A stretch of DNA of 64,000 nucleotides from Squalus acanthias. Its lineage: Eukaryota. Position 1 is the first letter of the stretch; every line of letters begins with the position of its first letter. Location: positions 52,702,001-52,766,000 of the forward strand of contig CM059432.1 in NCBI GenBank assembly GCA_030390025.1. The letters are read 5' to 3'. The notes under the pieces were generated by a model, which saw nothing but the letters and a program-made list of their open reading frames with translations, had not been told where the DNA came from and made no database searches. Made by a program: the position numbers and the translations under genes. Positions 10,046 through 59,207 of this stretch are shown here, piece after piece.

Positions 10046-11862
10046 ACATAAAAACATAAGACATAGGAGCAGGAGTAGGCCATTCGGTCCTTCGAGCCTG
10101 CTCCGCCATTCACTAAGATCATGGCTGATCTTCTATCTCCTCTCCACTTTCCTGAACTATCCCCATATCCCTTGTTTCCCTTAATATTCAAAAATCTATC
10201 GATCTCTGTCTTGAATATCCTCAACGACTGAGCTTGCACAGCACTCTGGAGTAGAGAATTCCAAAGATTCACCACTCTCTGAGTGAAGAATTTTCTCCTC
10301 ATCTCAGTCCTAAATGGCTGACCCCTTATTCTGAGACTGTGACCCCTGGTTCTAGACTCCCCAGCCAGGGGAAATATCCTCCCTGCATCTACCCTGTCAA
10401 GCCCTGTAAGAATTTTGTATGTTTCAATGAGATCACCTCTCATTCTTCTAAACTCCAGAGAGTATAGGGCCAGTCTACTCAATCTCTCCTCATAAGAAAA
10501 TCCCCCCATCCCAGGAACCAGTCTGGTGAACCTTTGTTGCACTCCCTCTATGGCAAGTATATCCTTCCTTAGGTAAGGTGACCAAAACTGTACACAATAC
10601 TCCAGGTGTGGTCTCACCAGGGCCCTATATAATTGCAGTAAGACCCCTTTACTCTTATACTCAAATCCTCTTGTAATAAAGGCCAACATACCATTTGCTT
10701 TCCTAATTGCTTGCTGTACCTGCATGTTAACTTTCAGTGATTTGTATACAAGGACACCCAGGTCCCCCTGGACACCAACAGTTCCCAATCTCTCACCATT
10801 TAAAAAATACTCTGCTTTTCTATTTTTCCTACCCAAGTGGATAACTTCACATTTCTCCACATTATATTCCATTTACCATGTTCTTGCCCACTCACTTAGC
10901 CTGTCTATATCCCCTTGAAGCCTCCTTGCACCTGCTCACAACTTACATTCCCACCCAGCTTTGTATCATCAGCAAACTTGGATATATTACATTTGGTCCC
11001 CTCATTCAAATCTTTGATGTAGATTGTGAATAGCTGAGGCCCAAGCACTGATCCTTGCGGTACCCCACAAGTTACAGCCTGCCAACCCGAAAATGACCCG
11101 TTTATTCCTACTCTCTGTTTTCTGTCCATTAACCAATCCTCAATCCATGCTAGTATATTACCCCCCAATCCCATGAGCCCTATTTTTTTTTTTAATAACC
11201 TCTTGTGTGGCACCTTATCGAATGCCTTCTGAAAATCCAAATACACCACATCCACTGGTTCCCCCTTATCTATTCTGCTAGTTACAACCTCAAAAAAACT
11301 CCAACAGATTCGTCAAACACGATTTCCCTTTCATAAATCCGTGTTGACTGCCCAATCCTATTATTTTCTAAGTGCCCTGTTACCACGTTCTTAATAATAG
11401 ATTCTAGCTTTTTCCCTACTACTGATGTCAGGCTAACTGGTCTGTAGTTCCCTGTTTTCTCTCTCCCTCCTTTCTTAAATAGTGGGTTACATTTGCTACC
11501 TTCCAATCTGCGGGAACCGTTCTAGAATCTGTGGAATTTTGGAAAATGACAACCAATGCATCCACTATCTCTATAGCCAACTCTTTCAAAACCCTAGGAT
11601 GTAGGCCATCAGGTCCAGGGGATTTATCGACTTTCAGTCCCATTAATTTCTCCAGTACTACTTTTTTTTACTAATACTAATTTCTTTTAGTTCCTCATTC
11701 TCGCTGCAGCCTTGGTTCTCCACTATTTCCGGGAAGTTTTTTGCATCCTCTTCCATGCAGACAGACACAAAGTATTTGTTTAATTTCTCTGCCATTTCCT
11801 TATTCCCCATTATAATTTCTCCTGTCTTGGCCTGTAAGGGATCCACATTTACTTTCACTAAT
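10046..11862 (-). mobile_element. 5'-truncated CR1 LINE (ORF2 RT and 3' tail) in an LPIN2 intron
   Basis: Frameshifted ORFs: [43 protein letters not shown]. (ACATAAGA)-type tail at ~10046-10066. Confidence 0.95.
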
Positions 11863-38904: not shown

Positions 38905-40671
38905 GAACAGATCTTGGCTCGGAAGATCAGGAAGTAGAATCAGTATGGGTGGAGATGAGAAATAACAAGGGGCAGAAAACACTGCTGGGAGTAGTTTATA
39001 GGCCCCCAAACAGTAGCTATACTGTTGGACAGAGTATTAATCAACAAATAATCGGAGCGTGTAACAAAGGTAATAAAATAATTGTGGGGGACTTTAATCT
39101 TCATATAGACTGGGCAAATCAAATTGGCAAAGATAGTTTGGAGGATGAGTTCATGGGATGCATTCAAGACAGTTTCCTAGAACAATACATCGTGGAACCA
39201 ACCAGGGAACAGGCAATTTTAGATCTTGCAATGTGTAATGAGACAGGGTTAATTAGTAATCGCATAGTAATGGATCCTCAGGGAAGAGTGATCATAATAA
39301 GATAAAATTCCACATTGAGTTTGAGAGTGAAATACTTCAGTCAGAAACTAGAGTCTTAAACTTAAATAAAGCCAATTACATAGGTATGAGGGGCGAGTTA
39401 CCTAAGATAGATTGGGAAATTAGATTAAAAGGTATGACGGTAGATAAGCAGTGGCAAACATTTAAAGAAATATTCCAAAATTCTCAACGAATATATATTC
39501 CACTGAGAAATAAAAACTCCACGGGAAAAGTGATCCATCTGTGGCTAACGAAAGAAGTTAAGGATAGTATTAGATTAAAAGACGAGGCTTATAATCTTGC
39601 GAAGAATAGTAGTAAGCCTGAGGATTGGGAGAGCTTTAGAAACCAGCAAAGGATGACCAAAAAAATTGATAAAAAGGGAGAAAATAGAATGAGAGTAAAC
39701 TAGCAAGAAATATAAAAACAGACTGTAAGAGCTTCTACAAGCATATAAAAAGGAAGAGATTAGCAAAAGTAAGTGTTGGTCCCCTAGAGGCTGAGGCAGG
39801 TGAAATTATAATGGGGAATAAGGGAATGGCTGAGAATTTAAACAAATATTTTGTATCTGTCTTCACAGCAGATGACACAAAATGCATATCAAAAATAATG
39901 GGGAGCTAAGGAGCTAATAAGAGTGAGGAACTTAAAGTAATTATCAGGAGAGAAAAAGTTGAGAAACTAATTGGACTAAAAGCCGACAAATCCCCTGGAC
40001 CTGATGGCATACATCCTAGGGTTCTAAATGAGGTGGCTGCAGAGATAGTGGATGCATTGGTTGTGATCTTCCAAAATTCCCTAAATTCTAGAACGGTCCC
40101 AGCGGATTGAAAGGTAGCAAATGTAACCCCGCTATTCAAGAAAGGAGGGAGAGAGAAAACTAGACATCAGTCATTGGGAAAATGCTGGAATCCATTATTA
40201 AGGAAGTGGTAACAGAGCACTTTAGAAAATCATAATATGATTAGGCAGAGTCAACATGGTTTTATGAAAGGGAAATTGTGTTTAACAAATTTATGAGAGT
40301 TTTTTGAGGATGTAACTCACAGGATAGATAAAGGGGAAACCAGTGGATGTAGTATATTTGGATTTCCAAAAGGCATTCGATAAGGTGCCACATAAAAAGT
40401 TGCTACACCAGATAAGGGCTCATGGGGTTGGGGGTAATATATTAGTATGGATAGAGGATTGGTTAACAGATAGAAAAGAGAGAGTAGGGATAAACTGGTC
40501 ATTTTCCGGTTGGCAGGCTATAACTAGTGGGGTGCTGCAAGGATCAGTGCTTGGGCCTCAATTATTTACAATCTATATTAATGACTTAGCTGAAGGGACC
40601 GAGTGCAAAGTATCCAAGTTTGCTGACAATACAAAGCTAAGTGGGAAAGTAAGCTGTGAGGAGGACACAAA
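38905..40671 (+). mobile_element. CR1 LINE ORF2 fragment (EN and RT), truncated at a Harbinger insertion
   Basis: ESVWVEMRN...[39 protein letters not shown]. Ends at GAGGACACAAA. Confidence 0.93.
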
Positions 40672-41040
40672 GGGCTGGATTTTACTCACGGAGACGAGTT
40701 GGGGGCGGGACTGCTGCCTCCGGGTTCTAGTCCCGCCCCCAGCGATGTCTGACGCACAGACGCTATTTTCCCCTGATTGGCCTTGTTAAGCCCGCCCTGC
40801 AGGCTTGCTGGCCAATTAAGGGAAAGCCGGTGTCAGATGACATCAGTTGATGACGCTTCATCTGCCGGTTTTCTTAAAGACACATGAACCATAAATTTTT
40901 GACAGATGAGGTGCTGTCAAACACTGACAATCACTATACAAAGGTGAGCCCTTGCACCCAGGCTGTCCAATGACTCTCTCCTTAGGATGAAACAGATGGC
41001 AGCTGCAGGTGAGTGTACAGAAGCGATCTGTCACTTCTCC
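40672..41040 (+). mobile_element. Harbinger left-end fragment
   Basis: Begins GGGCTGGATTTT. Reverse-complement homology to 63370-63647. Confidence 0.75.
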
Positions 41041-42570: not shown

Positions 42571-43788
42571 TCTTCTCTCTCTCTCTTAGGCAGTCCCTCG
42601 GAACCGAGGATGACTTGCTTCCACGCTAAAAATTAGTTCTCAGGTGACTGATGAGTCCAATGCGGGACCTACAGTCTGTGTCACAGGTGGGGCAGACGGT
42701 GGTTGAAGGGGCGGCTGGGTGGGGTGCTTGGGTTGACGTGCGCTCCTTCCGCTGTTTGCGCTTGGCTTCCGCTTGCTCCCAGCGAAGAGACTCGAGGTGT
42801 TCGGCGCCTTCCCGGATGCTTCTCCTCCACTTTGTACGGTCTTGGGCCAGGGATTCCCAGGTGGCGGTGGGGATGTTGCACTTTTTCAAGGAGGCTTTGA
42901 GGGTGTCCTTGAAGCGTTTCCTCTGCTTACCTGGGGTTCTCTTGCGTGTCGGAGCTCTGAGTAGAGCTTGTTTTGGGAGTCTCGTATCGGGCATGCAGAC
43001 GATGTGGCCCGTCCATCGGAGCTGATCGAGCGTGGTCAAAGCTTCGATGCTGGGGATGTTGGCCTGAGCGAGAACACTGACATTGGTGCGCCTATCCTGC
43101 CAATGGATTTGCAGGATCTTGCGGAGGCAGCGTTGGTGGTACCTCTCCAGTGCTTTGAGGTGCCTGTTGTACATGGTCCATGTCTCTGAAGCATACAGGA
43201 GGGCGGGTATCACTACTGCTCTGTAGACCATTAGCTTGGTGATGGGTTTGAGGTCCTGGTCTTCAAACACTCTCTTCCTCAGGCGACCGAAGGCTACACT
43301 GGCACACTGAAGGCGGTGTTGGACTTCGTCATCGAAGTCTGCCCTTGTTGGCAGTAGGCTCCCGAGGTATGGAAAGTGGTCCACGTTGTCCAAGGCCTCG
43401 TTGTGGATTTTGATAATTGGGGAGCAGTACTGTGTGGTGGGGCAGGTTGGTAGAGGACCTTTGTCTTATCGATGTTTAGTGTAAGGCCCATGCTCTCGTG
43501 CGCTTCGGTTAAGGTGTTGACGATGGTTTGGAATTCGACCTCCAAGTGTGCGCAGACGCAAGCGTCGTCTGCATACTGTAATTCGATGACAGAAGATGGG
43601 ACGACCTTGGATCTGGACTGGAGGCGACGGAGGTTGAACAGTTTGCCGTTTGTTCTGTAGATTAGTTCCACTCCAGCGGGGAGCTTACTGAGGGTGAGAT
43701 GGAGCATTGCAGCCAGGAAGATCGAGAAGAGCGTTGGTGCAATGATACAGCCTTGCTTGACCCCAGTCCGTACGTGAATTGGGTCTCC
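42571..43788 (-). mobile_element. 5'-truncated RTE-clade LINE nested in Harbinger
   Basis: GVKQGCIIAPTLF, QYADD, YLGS, C-terminal CPTC...HLRT. (GA)n tail. TSD TGATGTGC at 42563-42570 and 43789-43796. Confidence 0.9.
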
Positions 43789-44433
43789 TGATGTGCAGCA
43801 AGGTGCTGTCAAGCCACTTGCTTGCACTGAAGCGGGGCTGACCCATGAGAGGGATGTTGATGGCAGACAAGAAGGAAGTGGGGGCTCCTCTCCAAGCGCT
43901 CACACTCCCATACCACTGAGTCACCCTTGGTCAGAGCCACACCAGAGTCCTCAACCAACTGAGATGGGCATCTCAGCCCCTGCACAGACGCAGGAGGAGC
44001 AGACTGTTGCTGAGCCCTCACAGGCTCGCAAACCCAGAGGAAGCCTGCCAAAGGTGTCGAAGCAGGAGCAGCATGAAAGTGAGCAAGGTGCCTCCACATC
44101 TGCTGAAGCCACAGGGGAAGCACCACGTAGAAGCACGTGTAAGAGGAACATAAAGCACAATTAGTCACAAGGCTAGTCACTTGGTGTTCTGTTCTGTGCT
44201 GTTGTATATAATTTTTGACATTGTCATCCTTTTGTGAATGGATTAAACAGAAGTGATGGCAAACAGTTGAAGTTCTGGCCTATGTGATCTCGGAACTGGA
44301 AATTCCACGTTGAGGGCTCAGGGCGACTTGCATTTGTAATGATGGTGCTCAGAGTGATAGGAACCCACAGGTTCTTGCCCATTGTCTATGGTGTGATAAG
44401 AAGGTGCCAGCCACATGTGTTTGATTCGTCTAC

Positions 44434-45627
44434 CTAAGCGAATCTGACAAATATTAGTGCATCCCTTGCATCCTGGGCAGCAATGTGCTCGTGTGCTGCT
44501 GCAGCTGGCTCATGCGCCTCCGCAAGGTCTTCGTCCTCCTCCTCCTCCTCTTCCTCCTCCTCCTCCTCATCTGAGGAGGCTATGCGCTGAGCCACTTGTT
44601 CCTCAGGCAGCTGCAAGCCACGATGCTGTGCGATGTTGTGTAGTGCACAGCAGACCACCACGATTCTGGAGACCCTGGCTACTGAATACTGTAGGGCTCC
44701 ACCTGATCTGTCAAGGCATCTGAATCGCATCTTCAGCAAGCTGGCATTGTAGCGCTCCTCAGCTTCGTTCGATGGCCTCCTCAACGACGTCATCAGCCAC
44801 ATCTTCAGGGGATAGCCCTTGTCTCCAAGTAGCCACCCGGAAAGTTGGTTTGGCGGATTGAAGAGCGGAGGCACACTAGACTGCCGCAGGATGAACGAAT
44901 CATGGCAACTGCCAGGGTACGTTGCGCAAACATGCAAAATGTCCTTCCTGTGGTTACACACCAGCTGCACGTTGAGGGAGTGGAAGCCCGTGCAGTTGAC
45001 AAAAACAGCTGGGTTGTGATAGGGAGCCCTAAGGGCCACATGTGTGCACTCTACGGCGCCCTGCACCCTTGGCAAGCCTGCCATATTTGCAAAGCCAACC
45101 GCACGCATGGTTACACTTGCTTGATCCATCGAGAAGTGTATGTAATTGTGCGCCTTGGCAAAGAGGGCATCGGTTACCTGCGTGATGCAAGTGTGTGCGG
45201 CCGACTGGGAGATGCCACTGATGTCTGCTGATGATCCCTGGAAGGGCCCTGAAGCAAAAAAATTGAGGGCGGTGGTGACTTTGACAGCCACTGGTAAGGG
45301 GTGTCCACCCGCTCCTCTGGGCTCCAGGTGTTGGTGCAGCATTGCGCAGATGTCACCGACTACCTCTCGCGAAAGTCTCAGCCTCCTTTGGCACTGCTGC
45401 TCAGTCATGTTGAGGAAGCTCATCCTCGGCCTGTAAACCCTGTGTTGGGGGTATCTCCTGCGGCGACATGCAGCCCTGCGCTGACTCCTTCTGCCCTGTG
45501 CACCATCAGGTGGGTGAGCAGGAGGTTGGCGCTCCTGCTGTTGGTGCTGCTGTTGTTCCTGGTTCTGCTGCGGCTGCTCTTCCTCCGAATCTGAAGACCA
45601 GGGTGAAAGGAAATAAATGGTTCCCAT
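44434..45627 (-). pseudogene. Harbinger (HARBI1-like) DDE transposase ORF, 397 aa, catalytically damaged
   Basis: [71 protein letters not shown]. Confidence 0.85.
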
Positions 45628-46152
45628 GCTGCTGGTAGATATCTCTGTTGAAGAAGCGCTCAGTCAATGTGGGGAGAGGGTTTTCCCAGGAGGTCACAAT
45701 GGAGATGGATCTCAGCTTCACCACTTCCAAGATCAGTAAACCTGCAAAAAGTTTTCCAAGACCTGAAAAATGAAAGTTCTGCCATCTGCAACTGATCCTT
45801 GTTGAGAGCTCCGTTTTTATGCTGGAGCTGCAGCTGTCAAGAAGGCAACCACTTGTGAACCCGACACAATTAGCTGGCGTGGTTGGGGAACGGCATGGAA
45901 CATGCAGAAAAAGTGGTAAAATGTAAAACGGCTGTCAAAATGGCATTATCCAGGCAGTTAACAAGCAGTTAACTGCCTTAAGTGCCTATCCCGCTGCTTG
46001 GTGGCAGGACCGAACGGGAGTCTGGAAGCCTGCCTTTGGCAAAGTTGCGTAGAGGCGGGTTGACAGCGGGATCGGAACACACCGTCATGTTTTGCTATTT
46101 TCCCACCTGACTCGCCTGCAAACCCGCCCCGAGCACCGGCAAAATCGCGGCC

Positions 46153-48120
46153 TTTGTGTCCTCTTCACAACTTGCTTTCCCACCTATCTTTGTATCATCC
46201 ACAAGTACACTCGCTTCCTTCATCCAAGTCATTAATATAGATTGTAAATAGTTGAAGCCCCAGCACTGATCCCTGTGGCACCCCTGCTAGTTATAGTTTG
46301 CCAACCTAAAAATGACCCATTTATCCCAACTCTCTGTTTTCTGTTAGTTAGCCAATCCTCTATCCATGCTAATATATTACCCCCAACACCGTGAACTCTT
46401 ATCTTGTGCAGTAACCTTTTATGTGGCACCTTATTGAATGCCTTTTGGAAATCCAAATACACTACATCTACTGTTCCCCTTGATCCACCCTGCTCGTTAC
46501 ATCCTCTAAGAACTCTAATAAATTTCTCAAACACGATTTCCCTTTCATAAAACCATGTTGACTCTGCTTGATTGTATTATGATTTTCTAAACGTCCTGCT
46601 ACTACTTCCTTAATAATGTACTCCAGCATTTTCCCAATGATAGATGTTAGGCTAACCAGCCTATAGTTTCCTGCTTTCTGTCTCCCTCCTTTCTTGAATA
46701 GGGCCATTACATTTGCAGTTTTCCAATCTGCTGGGACCTTTCCAGAATCTAGAGAATTTTGGAAGATCACAACCAATGCATCCACTATCTCTGCAGCCAC
46801 CTCTTTTAAGACCCTAGGATACAGGCCATCAAGTCCAAGGGACTTGTCAGCCTTTAGTCCCATTAGTTTGCCTCGTACATTTTCTCTAGTGATAGTGATT
46901 GTTTTAAGTTCCTCCCTACCTTTTGCCCCTTGATTATCTACTATTATTGGGATACTTTAATGTCTTCTACTGTGAAGACAGATATAAAATATTTGTTCAA
47001 AGTCTCTGCCATTTCCTTGTTTCCCATTATTAATTCCCCAGTCTCATCCTCTAAGGGACCAACGGTTACTTTAGCTACTCTGTTCCTTTTTATATACTTG
47101 TAGAAGCTCTTACTGTTTGTTTTTACATTTCTTGCTAGTTTACTCTCATAATCTATTTTCTCCCTCTTTATAATTTTTTTAGTCATCCTTTGCTGGTTTC
47201 TAAAAAATTCCCAATCTTCTGGCCTACCACTAATCTTCGCAACATTGTATGCCTTTTCTTTCAATTTGATACCATCCTTAACTTCCTTAGTTAGCCACGG
47301 ATGGTTCATCCTTCTCATAGAGTCTTTCTTTCTTACTGAATAAACCTTTGCTGAGAGTTATGAAATAGCTCCTTAAATGTCTGCCACTGCTTATCTACCG
47401 TCTTACCATTTAATCTATTTTCCCAGTCCACTTTAGCCAACTCTGTCTTCATACCTTTGTAATTGCTTTTATTTAAGTTGCAGACACTAGTTTCAGACCC
47501 AAGTTTCTCACCCTCAAACTGAATGTGAAATTCTATCATGTTATGATCACTCTTCCCTGGAGGATCCTTTACTATGAGATCATTAATTAACCCTGTCTCA
47601 TTACACATTACCAGATCTAAAATAGCCTGTTCCTGGTCGGTTCCACAAATTATTGTTCTATGAAACCATCCCGAATACACTCTATGAACTCATCCTCAAG
47701 GCTACCTTGCCTTGTCCAATCGATATGAAGATTAAAATCGCCCATGATTATTGCAGTAGCTTTCTTACAAGCCCCCATGATTTCTTGATTTATACTTTGT
47801 CCTACAGTGTAGCTACTGTTAGGGGGCCTATAGATTACTCCCACCAGTGACTTCTTTCCCTTTCTATTTCTTATCTCCACCCAAACTGATTCTACATCTT
47901 GATCTTCCAAGCCAAGATCATTTCTCACTACTGTACTGATCTGATCCTTTATTAACAGAGTTATCCCACCAACTTTTCCTTTCTGCCTATCCTTCTGAAA
48001 TGTCAAATACCCCTGAATATTCAGTTCCCAGCCTTGGTCACCTTGCAACCACGTCTCTGTAATGGCTATCAGATCATACCCATTTATTTCTATTTGTGCC
48101 GTCAATTCATCTATCTTGTT
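46153..48120 (-). mobile_element. CR1 LINE ORF2 fragment (EN and RT), truncated at a Harbinger insertion
   Basis: [47 protein letters not shown]. Ends at GAGGACACAAA on the minus strand. Confidence 0.93.
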
Positions 48121-48579
48121 CCCAGCACTAGTGGAATTTGTTCATTTATATTGTGGAATGGGTTTCAGAGCATCAGCAGAAACACAAAAACAGCTCTTGA
48201 TTAAAAGTGAAGATCACTACTTTAAGTTTCTGGTTACAACCATTTCCAGATGTTGTGGGAAGGTCAGTAGCCACTGGTGCAGTATCTTTGGTTAAGCCTT
48301 TCTTGAATTGACACTCTGCACCATTAGAGTCACTAGCATCGTCTGATTTCTGTATGACTCTGAAGTCAGGACTGCTCCCAGTGTCAGTTCTGTACTATAA
48401 AGGCACAAAATTTAAAGAGTTCAACTGTTCAGCAAACAGTTTATTTTGTTCAAAACTTTAAGAATAGCAGCATATCTTACAGTGAACTAGTATGGCAATG
48501 AAGAAAGATTATCCTTCAAAATTACAACACTGTAATGTGTTGAGAGCATATTGAAGTATATTATAATAACTTTACTCAC

Positions 48580-51072: not shown

Positions 51073-52855
51073 ACAACAGAAAACGCTGGAAAAACTCAGC
51101 AGGCCAGGTAACATCCGTGGAGAGAGAAACAGAGTTAACGTTTCAGGTCGAAACCCTTCGTCAGAACTGAGAAAAGAGCAGGAAATAGAACAGATAAAAA
51201 TGCAAGGGGGAGGCTGGGGGGAGGAATAACTATGGTAAGTAGAGACATTAAGAGATGCTCAAGGCAAGACGAGATGGTAATGGGACAGGTTAAGAAACAA
51301 AAGGTGAAGTGTGAAATGCTGGCAGAATGAGAGACAGCTGCCGTAGGGGGAGAGAGAGAGAAAAAAAGGAAAAAGGCACGAACCAAAAGGGGGGATAAAA
51401 TGTGTATATATGTGGTAGGGGCCGGGGTTATGGTCTGAAATTGTTGAACTCGATATTGAGTCCAGAAGGCTGTAAAGTGCCTAAACGAAAGATGAGGTGC
51501 TGTTCCTCGAGCTTACGCTGAGCTTCCGTGGAACAATGCACGAGGCCGAGGACGGTGAGGTCTGAGTGGGCGTGGAGAGGTGAATTAAAATGACAAGCGA
51601 CCGGAAGCTCGGGGTCACCCTTACGGACTGAACGGAGGTGTTCCGCAAAGCGGTCACCCAATCTGCGTTTGGTCTCCCCAATGTAGAGGAGACCACATCG
51701 TGAGCAGCGAATACAGTATACTAGATTGCAAGAAGTACAAGTAAATCGCTGTTTCACCTGGAAGGGGTGTTTGGGGCCGTGGGAAGGGGGGATGTATAAG
51801 GGCAGGTGTTGCATCTCCTGCGCTTGCACGGGAAGGTGCCGGGCGAGGGGGAAGGGGTGTTGCGGGTGATAGAGGAGTGGACTAGGGTGTCTCGGAGGGA
51901 GCGGTCCCTACGGAATGCTGAAAGGGGAGGTGAGGGGAAGATACGTTTGGTGGTGGGATCACGTTGGAGGTGGCGGAAATGGCGGAGGATGATCCATTGA
52001 ATGTGGAGGCTGGTGGGGTGAAAGGTGAGGACAAGGGGAACTCTATCGTGGTTCCGGGAGGGCAGAAGTGCGGGAGATAGAACGGACACGGTCGAGGGCC
52101 GTGTCGACCACGGTAGAGGGGAATCCTCGGTTGAGGAAAAAGGAAGACATGTCGGAAGCACTGGTATGGAAGGTGGCATCGTCGGAGCAGATGCGGTGGA
52201 GACGGAGAAACTGGAAGAAGGGAATAGAGTCCTTACAGGAGGCGGGGTGGGAGGAAGTGTAGTCCAGGTAGCTGTGGGAGTCAGTGGGCTTGTAGTGAAT
52301 GTTGGTCAATAACCTATCCCCAGAGATGGAGACGGAGAAGTCGAGGAAGGGAAGGGAAGAGTCGGAGATGGACCATGTGAAGGTGAGGGAAGGGTGGAAA
52401 TTGGAGGCAAAGTGAATTAAATTATCTAGTTCAGGGCGAGAGCAGGAAACGGCACCGATACAGTCGTCAATGTACCGGAAAAAGAGGTGAGGGAGGGGAC
52501 CCAAGTAGGACTGGAACAAAGAGTGTTCCACATATCCCACGAAAAGGCAGGCATAGCTAGGACCCATGCGGGTACCCATAGCAACACCTTTGATTTGGAG
52601 GAAATGAGTGGAGTCAAAGGAGAAGTTGTTCAATGTGAGAACAAGTTCAGCCAGGCGGAGGAGGGTGGCGGTGGATGGGGACTGGTTGGGCCTCTGTTCA
52701 AGGAAGAAGCGGAGCGCCCTCAGGCCATCCTGGTGGGGGATGGAGGTGTAGAGGGATTGTACGTCCATGGTGAAAAGGAGGCGGTTGGGGCCAGGAAACT
52801 GGAAACTGTTAAAGTGGCAGAGGGCGTCAGAGGAATCGCGGATGTAGGTGGGAAG
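51073..52855 (-). mobile_element. 5'-truncated Penelope-like retroelement (RT and GIY-YIG endonuclease), frameshifted
   Basis: TMDVQSLYTSIPH, GVAMGTRMGPSYA, FRYIDD, NLVYCIRCSRCGLLYIGETKRRLGDRFAEH. TSD ATTGTATACA at 51063-51072 and 52856-52865. Confidence 0.93.
51133..51168 (-). ncRNA. Minimal hammerhead ribozyme motif in the Penelope 3' region
   Basis: Minus strand agtt-CTGACGA-agggtttcgacct-GAAA-cg-TT-aact. Confidence 0.65.
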
Positions 52856-53280
52856 ATTGTATACATTGTATACATGGCCAATATCTGGCACACACATATA
52901 TAGTGTACAGTGCAGGCTGACCCAAGGTGATCTACACATGCATGTAGTGTACAGTGTCTACACATGTAATGTCTGATGTAGATGTACATAATGTACAGTG
53001 TACGTATGACCAATATCTAACAAACATCGGTGTAGTATACAGCATATGCATATCCATTGTGATTTAGACCTGCACACTGTACACATGGTCAATGCTTGAC
53101 ATACACATGTCCATAGTATGCAGTATATGTCTGTCATAAGCATACATGTAGTGTACAGTGTATGCACAGTGTGACATATACATGCACTGTATCTGATGTA
53201 CATGTGCACATGGTGCAGCCTGATAAATGTACACATGCAAATTCTGATCTATGTACCTATCTAGTACGCACGTGTACAAA
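52856..53280. repeat. Alternating purine-pyrimidine low-complexity tract (TACA/TGTA/CATG-rich)
   Basis: Visible compositional repeat. It continues on the other side of the Penelope insertion (~51020-51072). Confidence 0.65.
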
Positions 53281-53715: not shown

Positions 53716-54580
53716 TTACATGGCAATATTGAAGCTGCTGATCTGACAGTTTTGATATGAACCTTCCTTGTATGGCAATGTAAATACTGGCCTAGAGATT
53801 CAAACATCATGAACCCAGTATTAATATCTTATCAGCTGCTGCAAATTAGGAGTGGCTTGTCATAACATATGTATGTCATACAACAGAGGTCTGTGATTTG
53901 TAGTGTTTTCAGTTAACATCCCCTTTCTCTGCAGTAAAGACAGCTGTGGCTCAGATCTTATTAAAAGAACAGCTGAACTAGACTTCTAATAAGAAGTATA
54001 ACTAGGGATTCTGAGATAATTGCGATCAGATGCTTGTCAGCAACAACTTGCCCTAGGGTGATGGTATCACAAGTAAGATACAGGCACATTTCAAAAAACG
54101 CAAAGCACTGCTGTCAATATTGGAGTTGAATATTATCCGAACAACTGTAGCCTTAACCAGATTGATTGAGGGACCAGCGTCGACAGCGGGGGAGGAGGAG
54201 CCTTTCTTTCTTTCTCTCTCCCACAGAGCGGTCGGCAGCGGGGAAGGAGGAGCGGACCTGGTTGGAGCGGCAGAGGCCTGAGGTGAGTCAATAAACTCAC
54301 CTACGTGGCCTTTTTCCCCAGCGGGGTAAGAGCTTCGCGGGCTTTTTCAAAGGCAGGGGGCGGGGCCAAATCATTGGTACCCGTATATAGGTGGAGCGGT
54401 TGCTAAACCCGAGACACTACACTAGTAGTGACTCCCACCCTCCCACCTCCTCTAACCTTTAGGGGTAGAGGGAATTTAAAAGGTAGGTTCGATTTTATAT
54501 TTTGTTTTCAGGGACTTAACTCCTGGACCTAAGATAAATAAGTTTAAATTTTAGTAATAAAGTAACATAAGGGTTAAGTC

Positions 54581-55525
54581 ATGACAGGAAGTCTCGGACC
54601 CGTTTCATGCTCCTCCTGTGCCATGTGGGAAACCAGGGACACTTCCAGTGTCCCTGACAACTACGTGTGCGGGAAGTGTGTCCAGCTGCAGCTCCTGACA
54701 GCCCGCATGGCAGTGCTGGAGCTGCGGGTGGACTCACTCTGGAGCATGCACGATGCCGAGAACTCGGTGAATCGCTCATTTAGTGAGTTGTCCACACCGC
54801 AGGTAAAGGCTAGGACAGACAGTGTATGGGTGACCAAGAAGCAGGGCAATATCAGGAAGGTAGTGCAGGAGTCTCCTGTGGTCATCTCCCTCCAAAACAG
54901 GTATGCCACTTTGGATACTGTTGGGGGAGATGGCCTACCAGGGGAAGGCACCAGCAGCCAGGTTCATGGCACCATGGCTGGCTCTGCTGCACAGCAGGGC
55001 GGGAAAAAGAGTGGTAGGGCTATAGTGATAGGGGACTCAATTGTAAGGGGAATAGACAGGAGTTTCTGTGGCCGCAACCGAGATTCCAGGATGGTATGTT
55101 GCCTCCCTGGTGCAAGGGTCAAGGATGTCTCGGAGCGGCTGCAGAACATTCTGAAGAGGGAGGGTGAACAGCCAGCTGTCGTGGTGCATGTAGGTACCAA
55201 CGATATAGGTAAAAAGCGGGAAGAGGTCCTACAAGCAGAATTTAGGGAGCTAGGAGCTAAATTAAAAAGTAGGACCTCTAAGGTAGTAATCTCTGGATTG
55301 CTACCAGGGCCACGAGCTAATCAGAATAGAGAGAACAGGATAGTGAGATTGAATACGTGGCTTGAGCAGTGGTGCAGGAGGGAGGGATTCAAATTCCTGA
55401 GGCATTGGAACCAGTTCTGGGGCAAGTGGGACCTGTACAAAAGGGACGGTCTGCACTTGGGCAGGACTGGAACCGATGTCCTCGGGGTAATATTTGCTAA
55501 AGCAGTTCGGGAGGATTTAAACTAA
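54581..55525 (+). CDS. CR1 ORF1p: N-terminal CxxC-CxxC zinc finger, coiled coil, SGNH/GDSL esterase domain
   Basis: CSSC...CGKC; IVIGDSIVRG; VHVGTNDI; DGLHL. Confidence 0.92.
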   Translation: MTGSLGPVSCSSCAMWETRDTSSVPDNYVCGKCVQLQLLTARMAVLELRVDSLWSMHDAENSVNRSFSELSTPQVKARTDSVWVTKKQGNIRKVVQESPVVISLQNRYATLDTVGGDGLPGEGTSSQVHGTMAGSAAQQGGKKSGRAIVIGDSIVRGIDRSFCGRNRDSRMVCCLPGARVKDVSERLQNILKREGEQPAVVVHVGTNDIGKKREEVLQAEFRELGAKLKSRTSKVVISGLLPGPRANQNRENRIVRLNTWLEQWCRREGFKFLRHWNQFWGKWDLYKRDGLHLGRTGTDVLGVIFAKAVREDLN

Positions 55526-55572
55526 TATGGCAGGGGAAGGGGAACCTATGCAGCGAAACAGGGGGAAGTAAT

Positions 55573-58509
55573 ATGCAGTCAGAAACAAATGTTAGAAGGG
55601 TGAGAAACAATAGGGGAAGGCCGAGTAAACAAAGGCAAGAAACACAAAGGGCCATACTAAATCATAAGTCTAAAAGGACAAAGGATGTTAATAAAATAAG
55701 CCTAAAGGCTCTGTGTCTTAATGCAAGGAGTATCCGTAATAAGGTGGATGAATTGACTGTGCAAATAGATGTTAACGGATACGATGTGATTGGGATTACA
55801 GAGACGTGGCTCCAGAACAATCAAGGCTGGGAACTGAACATCCAGGGGTATTCACCATTCAGAAAGGATAGAATAAAAGGAAAAGGGGGTGGGGTAGCAT
55901 TGCTGGTTAAAGAGGAGATTAATGCAATAGCTAGGAAGGACATCAGCTTGGAGGATGTGGAATCAATATGGGTTGAGCTGCAGAACACCAAAGGGCAGAA
56001 AACGTTAGTGGGAGTTGTGTACAGACCTCCAAACAGCAGTGGTGAGGTGAGGGAGGGTATGAAACAGGAAATCAGAGGTGCGTGCAAAAAAGGCACGGCA
56101 GTTATCATGGGTGACTTTAATATGCATATAGATTGGGCTACTCAAACTGGAAGCAATACGGTGGAGGAGGATTTCCTGGAGTGTTTAAGGGATGGTTTCC
56201 TAAACCAATATGTTGAGGAACCAACTCGAGGGGAGGCCATCCTGGACTGGGTGTTGTGTAATGAGGAAGGACTAATCAGCAATCTTGTGGTACGAGGCCC
56301 CCTGGGGAAGAGTGACCATAGTATGGTGGAGTTCTACATTAGGATGGAGAAGGAAACAGTTAAGTCAGAGACCATGGTCCAGAACTTAAATAAGGGCAAC
56401 TTTGATGGTATGAGGCGTGAATTGGCGAGGTTAAATTGGCAAGCGATATTTAAGGGGCTATCAGTGGAAGGGCAATGGCAGACATTTAGAGATCGCATGG
56501 ATGAACTACAACAATTGTACATCCCGGTCTGGCGTAAAAATAAAAAAGGGAAGGTGGCTCAACCATGGCTAACAAGGGAAATCAGGGATAGTATTAAAAC
56601 CAAGGAAGTTGCATACAAATTGGCCAGAAGTAGCAGCAAACCCGGGGACTGGGAGAACTTCAAAACTCAGCAAAGGAGGACGAAGGGTTTGATTAGGGCA
56701 GGGAAAATAAAATATGAAAGGAAGCTTGCAGAGAACATTAAAATGGACTGCAAAAGCTTCTATAAATATGTAAAAAGAAAGAGGTTAGTAAAAACAAACG
56801 TAGGTCCCCTGCAGTCGGAAACAGGGCAAGTCGTAATGGGGAACAAGGAAATGGCAGATCAATTGAACAAGTACTTTGGTTCGGTGTTTACTGTGGAGGA
56901 CACACACAACCTGCCGGAAATAAAAGGGGTCAGAGGATCTGGTAAGAGGGAGGAGCTGAGGGAAATCCTTATTAGTCGGGAAAAGGTATTGGGGAAATTG
57001 ATGGGACTGAAGGCTGAAAAATCCCCGGGGCCTGATGGTCTGCATCCCAGAGTACTTAAGGAGGTGGCCTTGGAAATAGTGGATGCATTGACGATCATTT
57101 TCCAACATTCCTTAGACTCTGGATCAGTTCCGATGGAGTGGAGGGTGGCCAATGTAACCCCTCTTTTTAAAAAAGGAGGGAGGGAGAAAGCAGGGAATTA
57201 TAGACCGGTCAGCCTGACATCGGTCGTGGGTAAAATGATGGAAGCAATTATTAAAGATGTCATAACAGACCATTTGGAAAGTGGCGACATGATAGGTCCC
57301 AGTCAGCATGGATTTGTGAAAGGGAAATCATGCTTGACAAATCTTCTGGAATTTTTTGAGGATGTTTCCAATAGGGTGGACAGGGGGGAACCAGTAGATG
57401 TGGTGTATTTGGACTTTCAGAAGGCCTTCGACAAGGTCCCACACAAGAGATTGGTGAGCAAAGTTAAAGCACATGGGATTGGGGGTAATGTGTTGACGTG
57501 GATTGAGAACTGGTTGGCACACAGGAAACAAAGAATAGGAGTAAATGGGTACTTTTCAGAATGGCAGGCAGTGACCAGCGGGGTACCGCAGGGTTCGGTG
57601 CTGGGACCCCAGCTGTTTACATTATATATTAATGATTTGGACGAAGGGATTAAATGTAATATCTCCAAATTTGCGGATGACACTAAATTGGGAGGCAGTG
57701 TGAACGATGAGGAGGATGCTAGGAGGCTACAGAGTGACTTGGACAGGTTGGGTGAATGGGCAAATGTATGGCAGATGAAGTACAATGTGGATAAATGTGA
57801 GGTTATCCACTTTGGTGGTAAAAATAGAGAGGCGGACTATTACCTGAATGGTGGCAGATTAGGGAAAGGGGAGGTGCAACGAGACCTGGGCGTCATGGTA
57901 CATCAGTCACTGAAGGTGGGAATGCAAGTGCAGGAGGCAGTCAAGAAAGCAAACGGAATGATGGCCTTCATAGCAAGGGGATTTGAGTACAGGAGTAGGG
58001 AGGTGATGCTGCAGTTGTACAGGGCCTTGGTGAGGCCACACCTGGAGTATTGTGCGCAGTTTTGGTCTCCTAACTTAAGGAAGGACATTCTTGCTATTGA
58101 GGGAGTGCAGCGAAGGTTCACTAGATTGATTCCTGGGATGGCCGGACTGACATATCAAGAAAGATTGGGTCAACTGAACTTGTATCCTCTGGAGTTCAGA
58201 AGAATGAGGGGGGATCTTATAGAGACATTTAAAATCCTGACTGGTTTAGACAAATTAGATGCGGGCAGAATGTTCCCAATGTTAGGGAAAACTAGAACCA
58301 GGGGTCACAGTCTAAGGATTAAGGGGAAGCCATTTAAGACTGAGCTGAGGAGGAACTTCTTCACCCAGAGAGTGGTGAATCTATGGAATTCTCTTCCACA
58401 GAAGGTTGTTGAGGCCAGTTCGCTAAATATATTCAAAAGGGAGTTAGATATAACACTCACAACTAGGGGGATCAAGGGGTATGGCGAGAAAGCAGGAATG
58501 GGGTACTGA
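55573..58509 (+). CDS. CR1 ORF2p: APE endonuclease and reverse transcriptase, 978 aa
   Basis: [45 protein letters not shown]. The frame is open from 55501. Confidence 0.95.
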   Translation: MQSETNVRRVRNNRGRPSKQRQETQRAILNHKSKRTKDVNKISLKALCLNARSIRNKVDELTVQIDVNGYDVIGITETWLQNNQGWELNIQGYSPFRKDRIKGKGGGVALLVKEEINAIARKDISLEDVESIWVELQNTKGQKTLVGVVYRPPNSSGEVREGMKQEIRGACKKGTAVIMGDFNMHIDWATQTGSNTVEEDFLECLRDGFLNQYVEEPTRGEAILDWVLCNEEGLISNLVVRGPLGKSDHSMVEFYIRMEKETVKSETMVQNLNKGNFDGMRRELARLNWQAIFKGLSVEGQWQTFRDRMDELQQLYIPVWRKNKKGKVAQPWLTREIRDSIKTKEVAYKLARSSSKPGDWENFKTQQRRTKGLIRAGKIKYERKLAENIKMDCKSFYKYVKRKRLVKTNVGPLQSETGQVVMGNKEMADQLNKYFGSVFTVEDTHNLPEIKGVRGSGKREELREILISREKVLGKLMGLKAEKSPGPDGLHPRVLKEVALEIVDALTIIFQHSLDSGSVPMEWRVANVTPLFKKGGREKAGNYRPVSLTSVVGKMMEAIIKDVITDHLESGDMIGPSQHGFVKGKSCLTNLLEFFEDVSNRVDRGEPVDVVYLDFQKAFDKVPHKRLVSKVKAHGIGGNVLTWIENWLAHRKQRIGVNGYFSEWQAVTSGVPQGSVLGPQLFTLYINDLDEGIKCNISKFADDTKLGGSVNDEEDARRLQSDLDRLGEWANVWQMKYNVDKCEVIHFGGKNREADYYLNGGRLGKGEVQRDLGVMVHQSLKVGMQVQEAVKKANGMMAFIARGFEYRSREVMLQLYRALVRPHLEYCAQFWSPNLRKDILAIEGVQRRFTRLIPGMAGLTYQERLGQLNLYPLEFRRMRGDLIETFKILTGLDKLDAGRMFPMLGKTRTRGHSLRIKGKPFKTELRRNFFTQRVVNLWNSLPQKVVEASSLNIFKRELDITLTTRGIKGYGEKAGMGY

Positions 58510-59207
58510 GGTAGCATGTTCAGCCATGAACGCATTGAATGGCGGTGCAGGCTCGAAGGACCGAATGGTCTACTCCTGTACCTATTTTCTATGTTTCTAT
58601 GTTTCTATGAAAGGAACTCTTATGTATTTGCTAATAAAATTGATACAATATTTTTTGGATTTTCATGATTTATCCCTTTTCTTTTTCCCTCTTTTTCCCT
58701 CCCTCTCAGTGAGATGGGACACAAATCACTCCTTAAAGCATGTGATTGGGGGAAGCAGTGTACTCATGGTGGATGAGATAATTATATTAATGGCTAAATG
58801 TAGCCTTTGCATCATGGGGTGTTCCACCTCGTAGCCTAACAAGATCTGGAAAAAAAAACATGCTCCACGTGATTCAAGAGACAAGCACCTTTGAGACTCT
58901 AAACCACAACCATCTGGATGGGAAGCTGTCATTCTACTGTCTAGGCTACAAAAGGGTCAAGATTTATTCATTTCAGCAGATGTTTGGATGATGTAATTAA
59001 TGAATCCCATGCACTGCAATCCCATTGATTTTATATCTCACCACTCCCAACGTTCCCACTTTGCCTAGTTTTACGACAGCACCTGCTATCAATTTCCTTC
59101 TAGATTTTTGCACTGATGCATTGTTCTGACCTTATGAGTATATTTTGTCACAAGATGATTACATTGATACTCATTGCCCTGTATTTTTAAGTTTATTTAA
59201 AAATGGT

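Follow-up and report, generated by a model that had tools for sequence, protein, structure and literature searches.

How does an esterase-bearing CR1 element, a long interspersed element (LINE) with two open reading frames (ORFs), get its second ORF translated when that ORF lies in the -1 frame relative to the first? The question is posed by an intact two-ORF LINE on the plus strand of a 64,000-nucleotide (nt) stretch of Squalus acanthias DNA (GenBank assembly GCA_030390025.1, contig CM059432.1, positions 52,702,001 to 52,766,000; hereafter the window, numbered from its first letter), in which ORF1 spans 54581-55525 and the -1 frame is then open over 55501-58509. The initiation of ORF2 in LINEs is described as an open question, for which reinitiation and the use of internal ribosome entry sites are both discussed (PMC3894237; this and the other papers are cited here from excerpts), and most vertebrates have the CR1 group as their dominant retrotransposon (PMC13343379). 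A conserved signal at the end of ORF1 makes it very probable that programmed -1 ribosomal frameshifting produces the CR1 ORF2 protein (ORF2p), which would then be an esterase-endonuclease-reverse transcriptase (RT) fusion of about 1,309 amino acids (aa; 314 + 995). The conserved heptamer, a sequence also used by viruses, together with a -1-frame ORF2 that often lacks a start codon, suggests that this protein likely arises via a one-base back-slip, and the conserved -1 signal offers a precise and testable answer on ORF2 translation for the CR1 clade.

The slippery site in the window

The features on which the argument turns are the following:

54581 to 55525, plus strand: ORF1, 314 aa from the ATG at 54581, an SGNH/GDSL esterase (PF13472, 3e-13) with the C-terminus Leu-Asn.
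55516 to 55522, plus strand: slippery heptamer T_TTA_AAC in the phase of ORF1, as read from the sequence; conserved in relatives.
55523 to 55525, plus strand: ORF1 stop codon TAA, abutting the heptamer, an adjacency shared by most relatives.
55522 to 58509, plus strand: ORF2 in the form that a -1 shift would yield, with 995 codons and a stop (PF03372, PF14529, PF00078).
55573 to 55575, plus strand: first in-frame AUG of ORF2, with A at -3; its position varies among relatives.

According to the mechanism proposed, most ribosomes would halt at the UAA and release the ORF1 protein (ORF1p), while a minority would pause, UUA occupying the P site and AAC the A site, slip one base back onto UUU AAA and go on through the basic linker (about 60 codons) into the APE endonuclease and the RT, which follow in this order in ORF2. 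Such a signal would fix the ORF1p:ORF2p ratio, much as that of Gag to Gag-Pol; the pause would probably be promoted by a local hairpin in some lineages or, in the group of this element, by a G-run that lacks structure and lies 10 nt further on, perhaps via a bound protein.

The initial annotation of the window had described a TTTAAAC in phase directly before the stop, an ORF2 frame open from just after a TAA at 55498-55500 with its first in-frame ATG at 55573, and an overlap of the two ORFs of 25 nt that contains the heptamer. All of this stands, the ORF1 end reading GAG GAT TTA AAC TAA and the 25 nt including the stop; left unmentioned were the out-of-frame AUGs at 55527 and 55548, both upstream of AUG 55573. 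The 9-mer TTTAAACTA, however, occurs twice in the window, where 0.94 occurrences would be expected, and a count of two is attained in 21 of 100 shuffles, so that the window site alone is within chance and the case rests on the relatives. As for the background, the ORF bodies, with 12,898 codon positions, show strict heptamers in phase at 46 of them (0.36%), and one within the last three ORF1 positions is expected at about 1%.

The junctions of the relatives

A metagenome scan was seeded with internal esterase motifs, the junction itself not being used as bait, and returned 63 loci, 40 of which were dropped (26 that end short of the ORF1 stop, 8 whose ORF1 end is broken, 5 bacterial-looking ones and 1 with an unrelated tail); the remaining 23, along with the window, make up 21 CR1-type junctions (the window and 20 loci) and three L2-type controls. 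A strict in-phase X_XXY_YYZ lies in the last three ORF1 codons at 19 of the 21 CR1-type junctions, counts that, given the shared ancestry of the loci, reflect conservation under selection and not independent origins. T_TTA_AAC is found at 17 of these junctions, abutting the stop in 16 and lying two codons before it in L045, while L032 and L040 carry T_TTT_TTA one codon before the stop; in L002 the heptamer reads G_TTA_AAC, and in L050 it is broken. The slippery site even alternates between known shifty heptamers among lineages. Had only Leu-Asn been required, T_TTA_AAC would be expected at 0.006-0.058 per locus. Identity of ORF2 between groups is 28-58%, the ten longest rows form five long, well separated branches or clades in a tree, and the heptamer, or something close to it, persists out of phase in five of the eight loci with a broken ORF1 end. 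The initial annotation had proposed just such a comparison, including a look at the ORF2 ATG, and its frameshift reading gains support from the outcome, since heptamer, phase and open -1 frame are kept at these identities and no ORF2 AUG is conserved; it fails only on the stimulator that it suggested for this element.

No heptamer was found in the three L2-type controls (L021, L046 and L048, the esterase motif of which resembles that of 4c1b). In two of them (L046:4185-4192 and L048:739-746) ORF1 ends in an ATG overlapping tandem TGAC repeats (ATG-TGA), which suggests stop-start coupling rather than frameshifting.

Between heptamer and endonuclease, the -1 frame holds no stop in 596 codons over 13 junctions, a zero that is partly due to selection, as these 13 are the ones that run in frame as far as the endonuclease motif (three further loci end too soon); the same length directly upstream holds 55 stops, and the other two frames 51 and 109. 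No Met precedes the endonuclease in 7 of the 13, the others having one at linker codon 3, 18, 21 or 27, and upstream of the heptamer the -1 frame is usually shut within 3-19 codons, without a Met. In the public sequencing runs, both differences listed between the heptamer and AUG 55573 (55539 and 55551, among 40 listed of 335) hit third bases of -1-frame codons, and at the loose end of a related family five consecutive -1-frame residues are, as read by eye, kept through synonymous changes. These changes, small in number, fit coding upstream of AUG 55573.

Proteins tell a similar story. Leu-Asn ends 49 of 82 ORF1 homologs, many of the others being partial or fused predictions. Among 150 cluster representatives, which are related to one another and were gathered with a profile that itself contained the terminal Leu-Asn, 95 have complete C-termini by our own rule, and 64 of the 95 end in Asn, preceded by Leu in 47, Gly in 11 and Lys, Ser and Glu in 2 each. 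Leaving Leu aside, 13 of 17 residues are thus Gly or Lys, versus a background of 15% (from protein only, uncorrected for kinship), and Leu, Gly and Lys before Asn are the residues encoded by U_UUA_AAC, G_GGA_AAC and A_AAA_AAC, all three among the most shifty heptamers (PMC5009743, which also has a G_UU(A) site in equine arteritis virus). Among 21 tails hand-picked from the 31 with a last residue other than Asn, Lys-Asn stands at the same internal position in 7 and Phe-Leu or Phe-Phe nearby in 5, which is suggestive only. A search seeded with ORF2, and hence independent of ORF1, found 51 long-leader proteins, 9 of which carry Phe-Lys or Phe-Phe by residue 20, with about 4% expected; these pairs are the -1 reading of the T_TTA_AAC and T_TTT_TTA heptamers.

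A search for natural ORF1-ORF2 fusion proteins, a weak test in which 8,000 candidates were scored, gave four matches and no CR1 fusion by annotation. Two single records were not counted as support: P0325, a predicted protein of 1,104 aa that joins the last part of an esterase to endonuclease and RT without a change of frame and would be either naturally fused or an indel copy, and P0032, which may be an indel copy.

Seven of the loci (L002, L004, L006, L032, L034, L035 and L040) are esterase-ORF1 CR1-like elements from environmental assemblies, distant from the shark and ray proteins. The range of esterase-ORF1 CR1 is given as vertebrate-only in the available part of PMC4120745, and would widen if the hosts of these loci were invertebrates. 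The window itself holds older, 5'-truncated CR1 ORF2 copies (10046-11861, 38928-40672, 46152-48138 and smaller ones, at 50-74% identity), and none of its other CR1 pieces reaches an ORF1/ORF2 junction. No further junction DNA came from the viral-contig, plasmid and G001 scans, and the prokaryote-genome scan gave seven loci with no usable LINE junction.

What might stimulate the proposed shift

The initial annotation had pointed to a tract rich in G-runs downstream of the stop that could form a hairpin or a quadruplex, and neither is borne out. No stable hairpin or pseudoknot is predicted 5-9 nt downstream in the window (z from -0.14 to +0.76 in the four downstream folding windows used), the Rfam search of the window gave no match, and no pairing partner was found at the homologous place in nine loci. 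As to a quadruplex, the G-rich stretch in the window contains, within 45 nt, three G3+ tracts and not four, and the 13 junctions, with 1-3 G3+ and 2-5 G2+ tracts within 45 nt, share no four conserved G-tracts. With no 3' structure in the window, the signal is not a classical structure-stimulated one. Significant hairpins beginning 7-11 nt past the heptamer are predicted in L032 (z -4.4), L034 (-3.2) and L035 (-2.75), a weaker one in L045 (z -1.3) and none in L040.

What the window does have at this place is a linear motif:

55530 to 55536, plus strand: conserved G-[A/C]-A-GGGG motif, its G-run starting at 55533, 10 nt past the heptamer; a candidate structure-free stimulator.

A run of four to six G begins at +11 (a 10-nt spacer) at 10 of 18 junctions from four lineages, the window included, at +10 in L008 and at +8 in L002; the G at +8 is kept at 12 of 13 junctions, although the residue encoded varies. 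Were the codons set by a Gln/Lys-Gly requirement alone, the chance would be about 3e-4 over four lineage representatives (our own product). A conserved linear motif at a fixed spacer within 9-15 nt, as in protein-stimulated frameshifts of the type known from cardioviruses or from PRRSV (the virus that causes porcine reproductive and respiratory syndrome), is thereby present. In the -2/-1 frameshift of PRRSV nsp2, a C-rich motif bound by nsp1-beta and PCBP lies behind a 10-nt spacer (range 9-11 nt; PMC4937337), and 3' stimulators at 12-15 nt are tied to trans-acting factors (PMC5009743). On these grounds a protein-bound linear stimulator is the role we prefer for the G-run, by analogy only: both motifs are linear and unstructured with a 10-nt spacer, whereas that of CR1 is G-rich and that of PRRSV C-rich, with a protein binder known for the latter. 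The G-run might instead accompany a weak, unstimulated shift aided by the adjacent stop, or reflect a protein constraint on the linker.

A bolder proposition, which we regard as possible and still doubtful, is that esterase CR1s across animals make their RT as a Gag-Pol-like fusion, and that vertebrate-type lineages switch it on by a protein-recruiting, structure-free G-run (bound by a host G-tract binder or by ORF1p) that replaced the hairpin of other lineages. If this were true, it would constitute a trans-activated, host-controllable frameshift in a transposon. Frameshifting as such, whatever stimulates it, would already have consequences: CR1 ORF2p would have to be redefined as a fusion of ORF1p, joining a membrane-binding esterase to RT and endonuclease; the annotation and engineering of active CR1 elements would change; and an ancient frameshift cassette of cellular genomes, possibly with a new kind of stimulator, would have come to light.

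The structures sought in vain downstream of the window site and in the nine loci weigh against frameshifting as the source of ORF2p, as do L040, which has neither hairpin nor G-run, and the early closure of the -1 frame in L007, L009, L024, L037 and L050, which we read as decayed copies. To these should be added the selection behind the count of zero stops, the 31 of 95 complete ORF1 tails that end in a residue other than Asn, the presence of Leu-Asn in the profile behind the related representatives, and the Gly-Asn and Lys-Asn classes being known from protein alone. The window, moreover, has a usable in-frame AUG at 55573 with a TAA-T-ATG relay, an in-frame ATG lies two bases past the stop in L008, L010 and L016, and L1 makes its ORF2 without an AUG (PMC5009743), so that an ORF2 devoid of AUG is, on its own, no proof of a frameshift.

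Competing explanations, precedents and surroundings

The alternative that survives best, unlikely as it is, would be termination-reinitiation, in which ribosomes, having stopped at the end of ORF1, start anew at an AUG close by or at a codon other than AUG, so that ORF2p is made separately, as it is in L1 and SART1 (precedent in PMC3894237 and PMC5009743). In the window this would take the form of a relay to AUG 55573 through the following feature:

55527 to 55571, plus strand: mini-ORF of 14 codons in the +1 frame, a possible reinitiation relay, not conserved; it begins 1 base past the ORF1 stop and closes 1 base before AUG 55573.

The TAA-T-ATG present twice in tandem around this mini-ORF, the A at -3 of AUG 55573, the stop abutting the heptamer in most relatives and the in-frame ATG right past the stop in L008, L010 and L016 (of the L008-L016 group, which we take to be bird-like) would all suit a restart. 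The TAA-T-ATG arrangement, however, is not kept in relatives, close relatives of L008 show GTG, TCG or TGG at the ATG codon after the stop, and in 7 of the 13 junctions an in-frame Met ahead of the endonuclease is missing altogether. Reinitiation also leaves unexplained the conservation of an in-phase X_XXY_YYZ, the switch between heptamers and the heptamers placed 1-2 codons before the stop (L032, L040 and L045), whereas the L2-type L046 and L048, with their overlapping ATG-TGA, have no heptamer.

A role of the conserved letters at the level of RNA or DNA (packaging, splicing to an ORF2 mRNA or polymerase slippage), with ORF2 coming from another transcript, is very unlikely. G-runs can act in splicing, the function of the one seen here is unproven, and T_TTT_TTA holds a T6 run; the strict ORF1 codon phase and the open -1 frame, however, are features of translation, T3A3C is too short for polymerase slippage, the contigs of two possibly-RNA runs (their RNA status being guessed) span the junction ungapped, and none of the 15 joints listed of 31 from such runs shows GT..AG. 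Hardly credible is a pure protein constraint, with the heptamer as a by-product of a need for Leu-Asn at the end of the esterase or for Phe-Lys-Leu at the N-terminus of ORF2: Leu313 and Asn314 are indeed invariant in a 29-sequence alignment (its rows hand-chosen), but the fixation of codon choice far beyond codon usage and the heptamer switch disfavour it, Leu gives way to Gly or Lys and to Phe-Leu in other lineages, Leu-Asn sits past the last helix at low model confidence, the alignment to the solved L2 esterase stops at position 309, and a stop usually shuts the -1 frame within 3-19 codons upstream, with no Met.

Frameshifting, the preferred explanation, has close precedents. As in retroviral gag-pol and coronavirus/arterivirus ORF1a/1b (PMC5009743), one of the shiftiest X_XXY_YYZ heptamers ends the structural ORF and the enzyme ORF lies in the -1 frame; the 3' hairpin of the viral frameshifts is matched in some CR1 lineages, the window element having no predicted pseudoknot or hairpin. 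Unlike these systems, CR1 is a retrotransposon without long terminal repeats; its ORF1 is an esterase, Pfam shows no protease domain, and the frameshift is a prediction from sequence. Nearer in kind are TRE5-A and TRE3-A of Dictyostelium, APE-type LINEs stated to need a -1 frameshift for ORF2 (PMC5911963), albeit amoebal, tRNA-gene-targeting and with a different ORF1, whereas many animal lineages share the CR1 signal; the available part of that paper describes neither a heptamer nor a stimulator or an assay for the TRE elements. For Paramecium elements, +1 shifting or reinitiation was suggested (PMC5405496). L1, SART1 and the L2 type (ZfL2-1-like) share with CR1 a bicistronic LINE RNA and a low ORF2 output, the L2 type also the esterase ORF1, and differ from the CR1 proposed here in having no fusion product, the L2 controls carrying no heptamer and, in two of the three, an overlapping ATG-TGA.

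The mechanism class is thus known, while its use by animal CR1 LINEs and a possible linear G-run stimulator appear to be undescribed. No account of a CR1 frameshift signal turned up in full-text searches of the literature, an earlier mention of the ORF overlap in print being possible, for example in the 1997 chicken and turtle CR1 papers. The excerpt available of a 2026 survey of vertebrate CR1 (PMC13343379) makes no mention of overlap, translation, slippage or start codon.

By its anatomy the element fits a canonical esterase CR1; the tree rows comprise the window and unnamed loci only. From N to C its ORF1 has a Cys cluster, a coiled-coil-like helix, a disordered linker and the SGNH/GDSL esterase, in line with the definition of canonical CR1 ORF1 as an SGNH esterase behind a Cys cluster and a long helix (PMC4120745, PMC13343379). 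The structure model places a helix at 31-71, has low pLDDT (the model's confidence score) over 72-142 and lets the final helix stop at 312; the best solved relative is a LINE ORF1 esterase (PDB 4c1b, L2-type, ZfL2-1-like, 8e-42), and among named ORF1 proteins those of sharks and rays come nearest (up to 74%), which makes a cartilaginous fish the likely host. The family of the element is present in sequencing runs from several organisms. A target-site duplication of the element was looked for and none was found. Its 3' end is as follows:

58510 to 58609, plus strand: short 3' untranslated region (UTR) without poly(A), ending in an 8-nt microsatellite of 3.6 copies (58582-58609).

The unit of this microsatellite is presumably typical of CR1. 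At 54179-54253, in what is presumably the 5' UTR, a direct repeat of 23 nt occurs in two copies that are 91% alike and lie 52 nt apart, and the runs carry further copies.

LINE proteins were also met under prokaryote names (P0008, P0287 and L066, assigned to a Pseudomonas, an archaeal metagenome-assembled genome and a gammaproteobacterial one, respectively), which is likely host-DNA contamination. Just upstream of the CR1, on the minus strand, a 304-codon frame (52046-52957) with a weak RT match (PF00078, 1.6e-5) and a YIDD motif is presumably a Penelope-type fragment. Another minus-strand frame, of 409 codons (44437-45663), has a DDE_Tnp_4 domain (2.6e-24), adjoins an RT fragment (43297-43899) and is what we take to be a piece of a Harbinger-type transposase.

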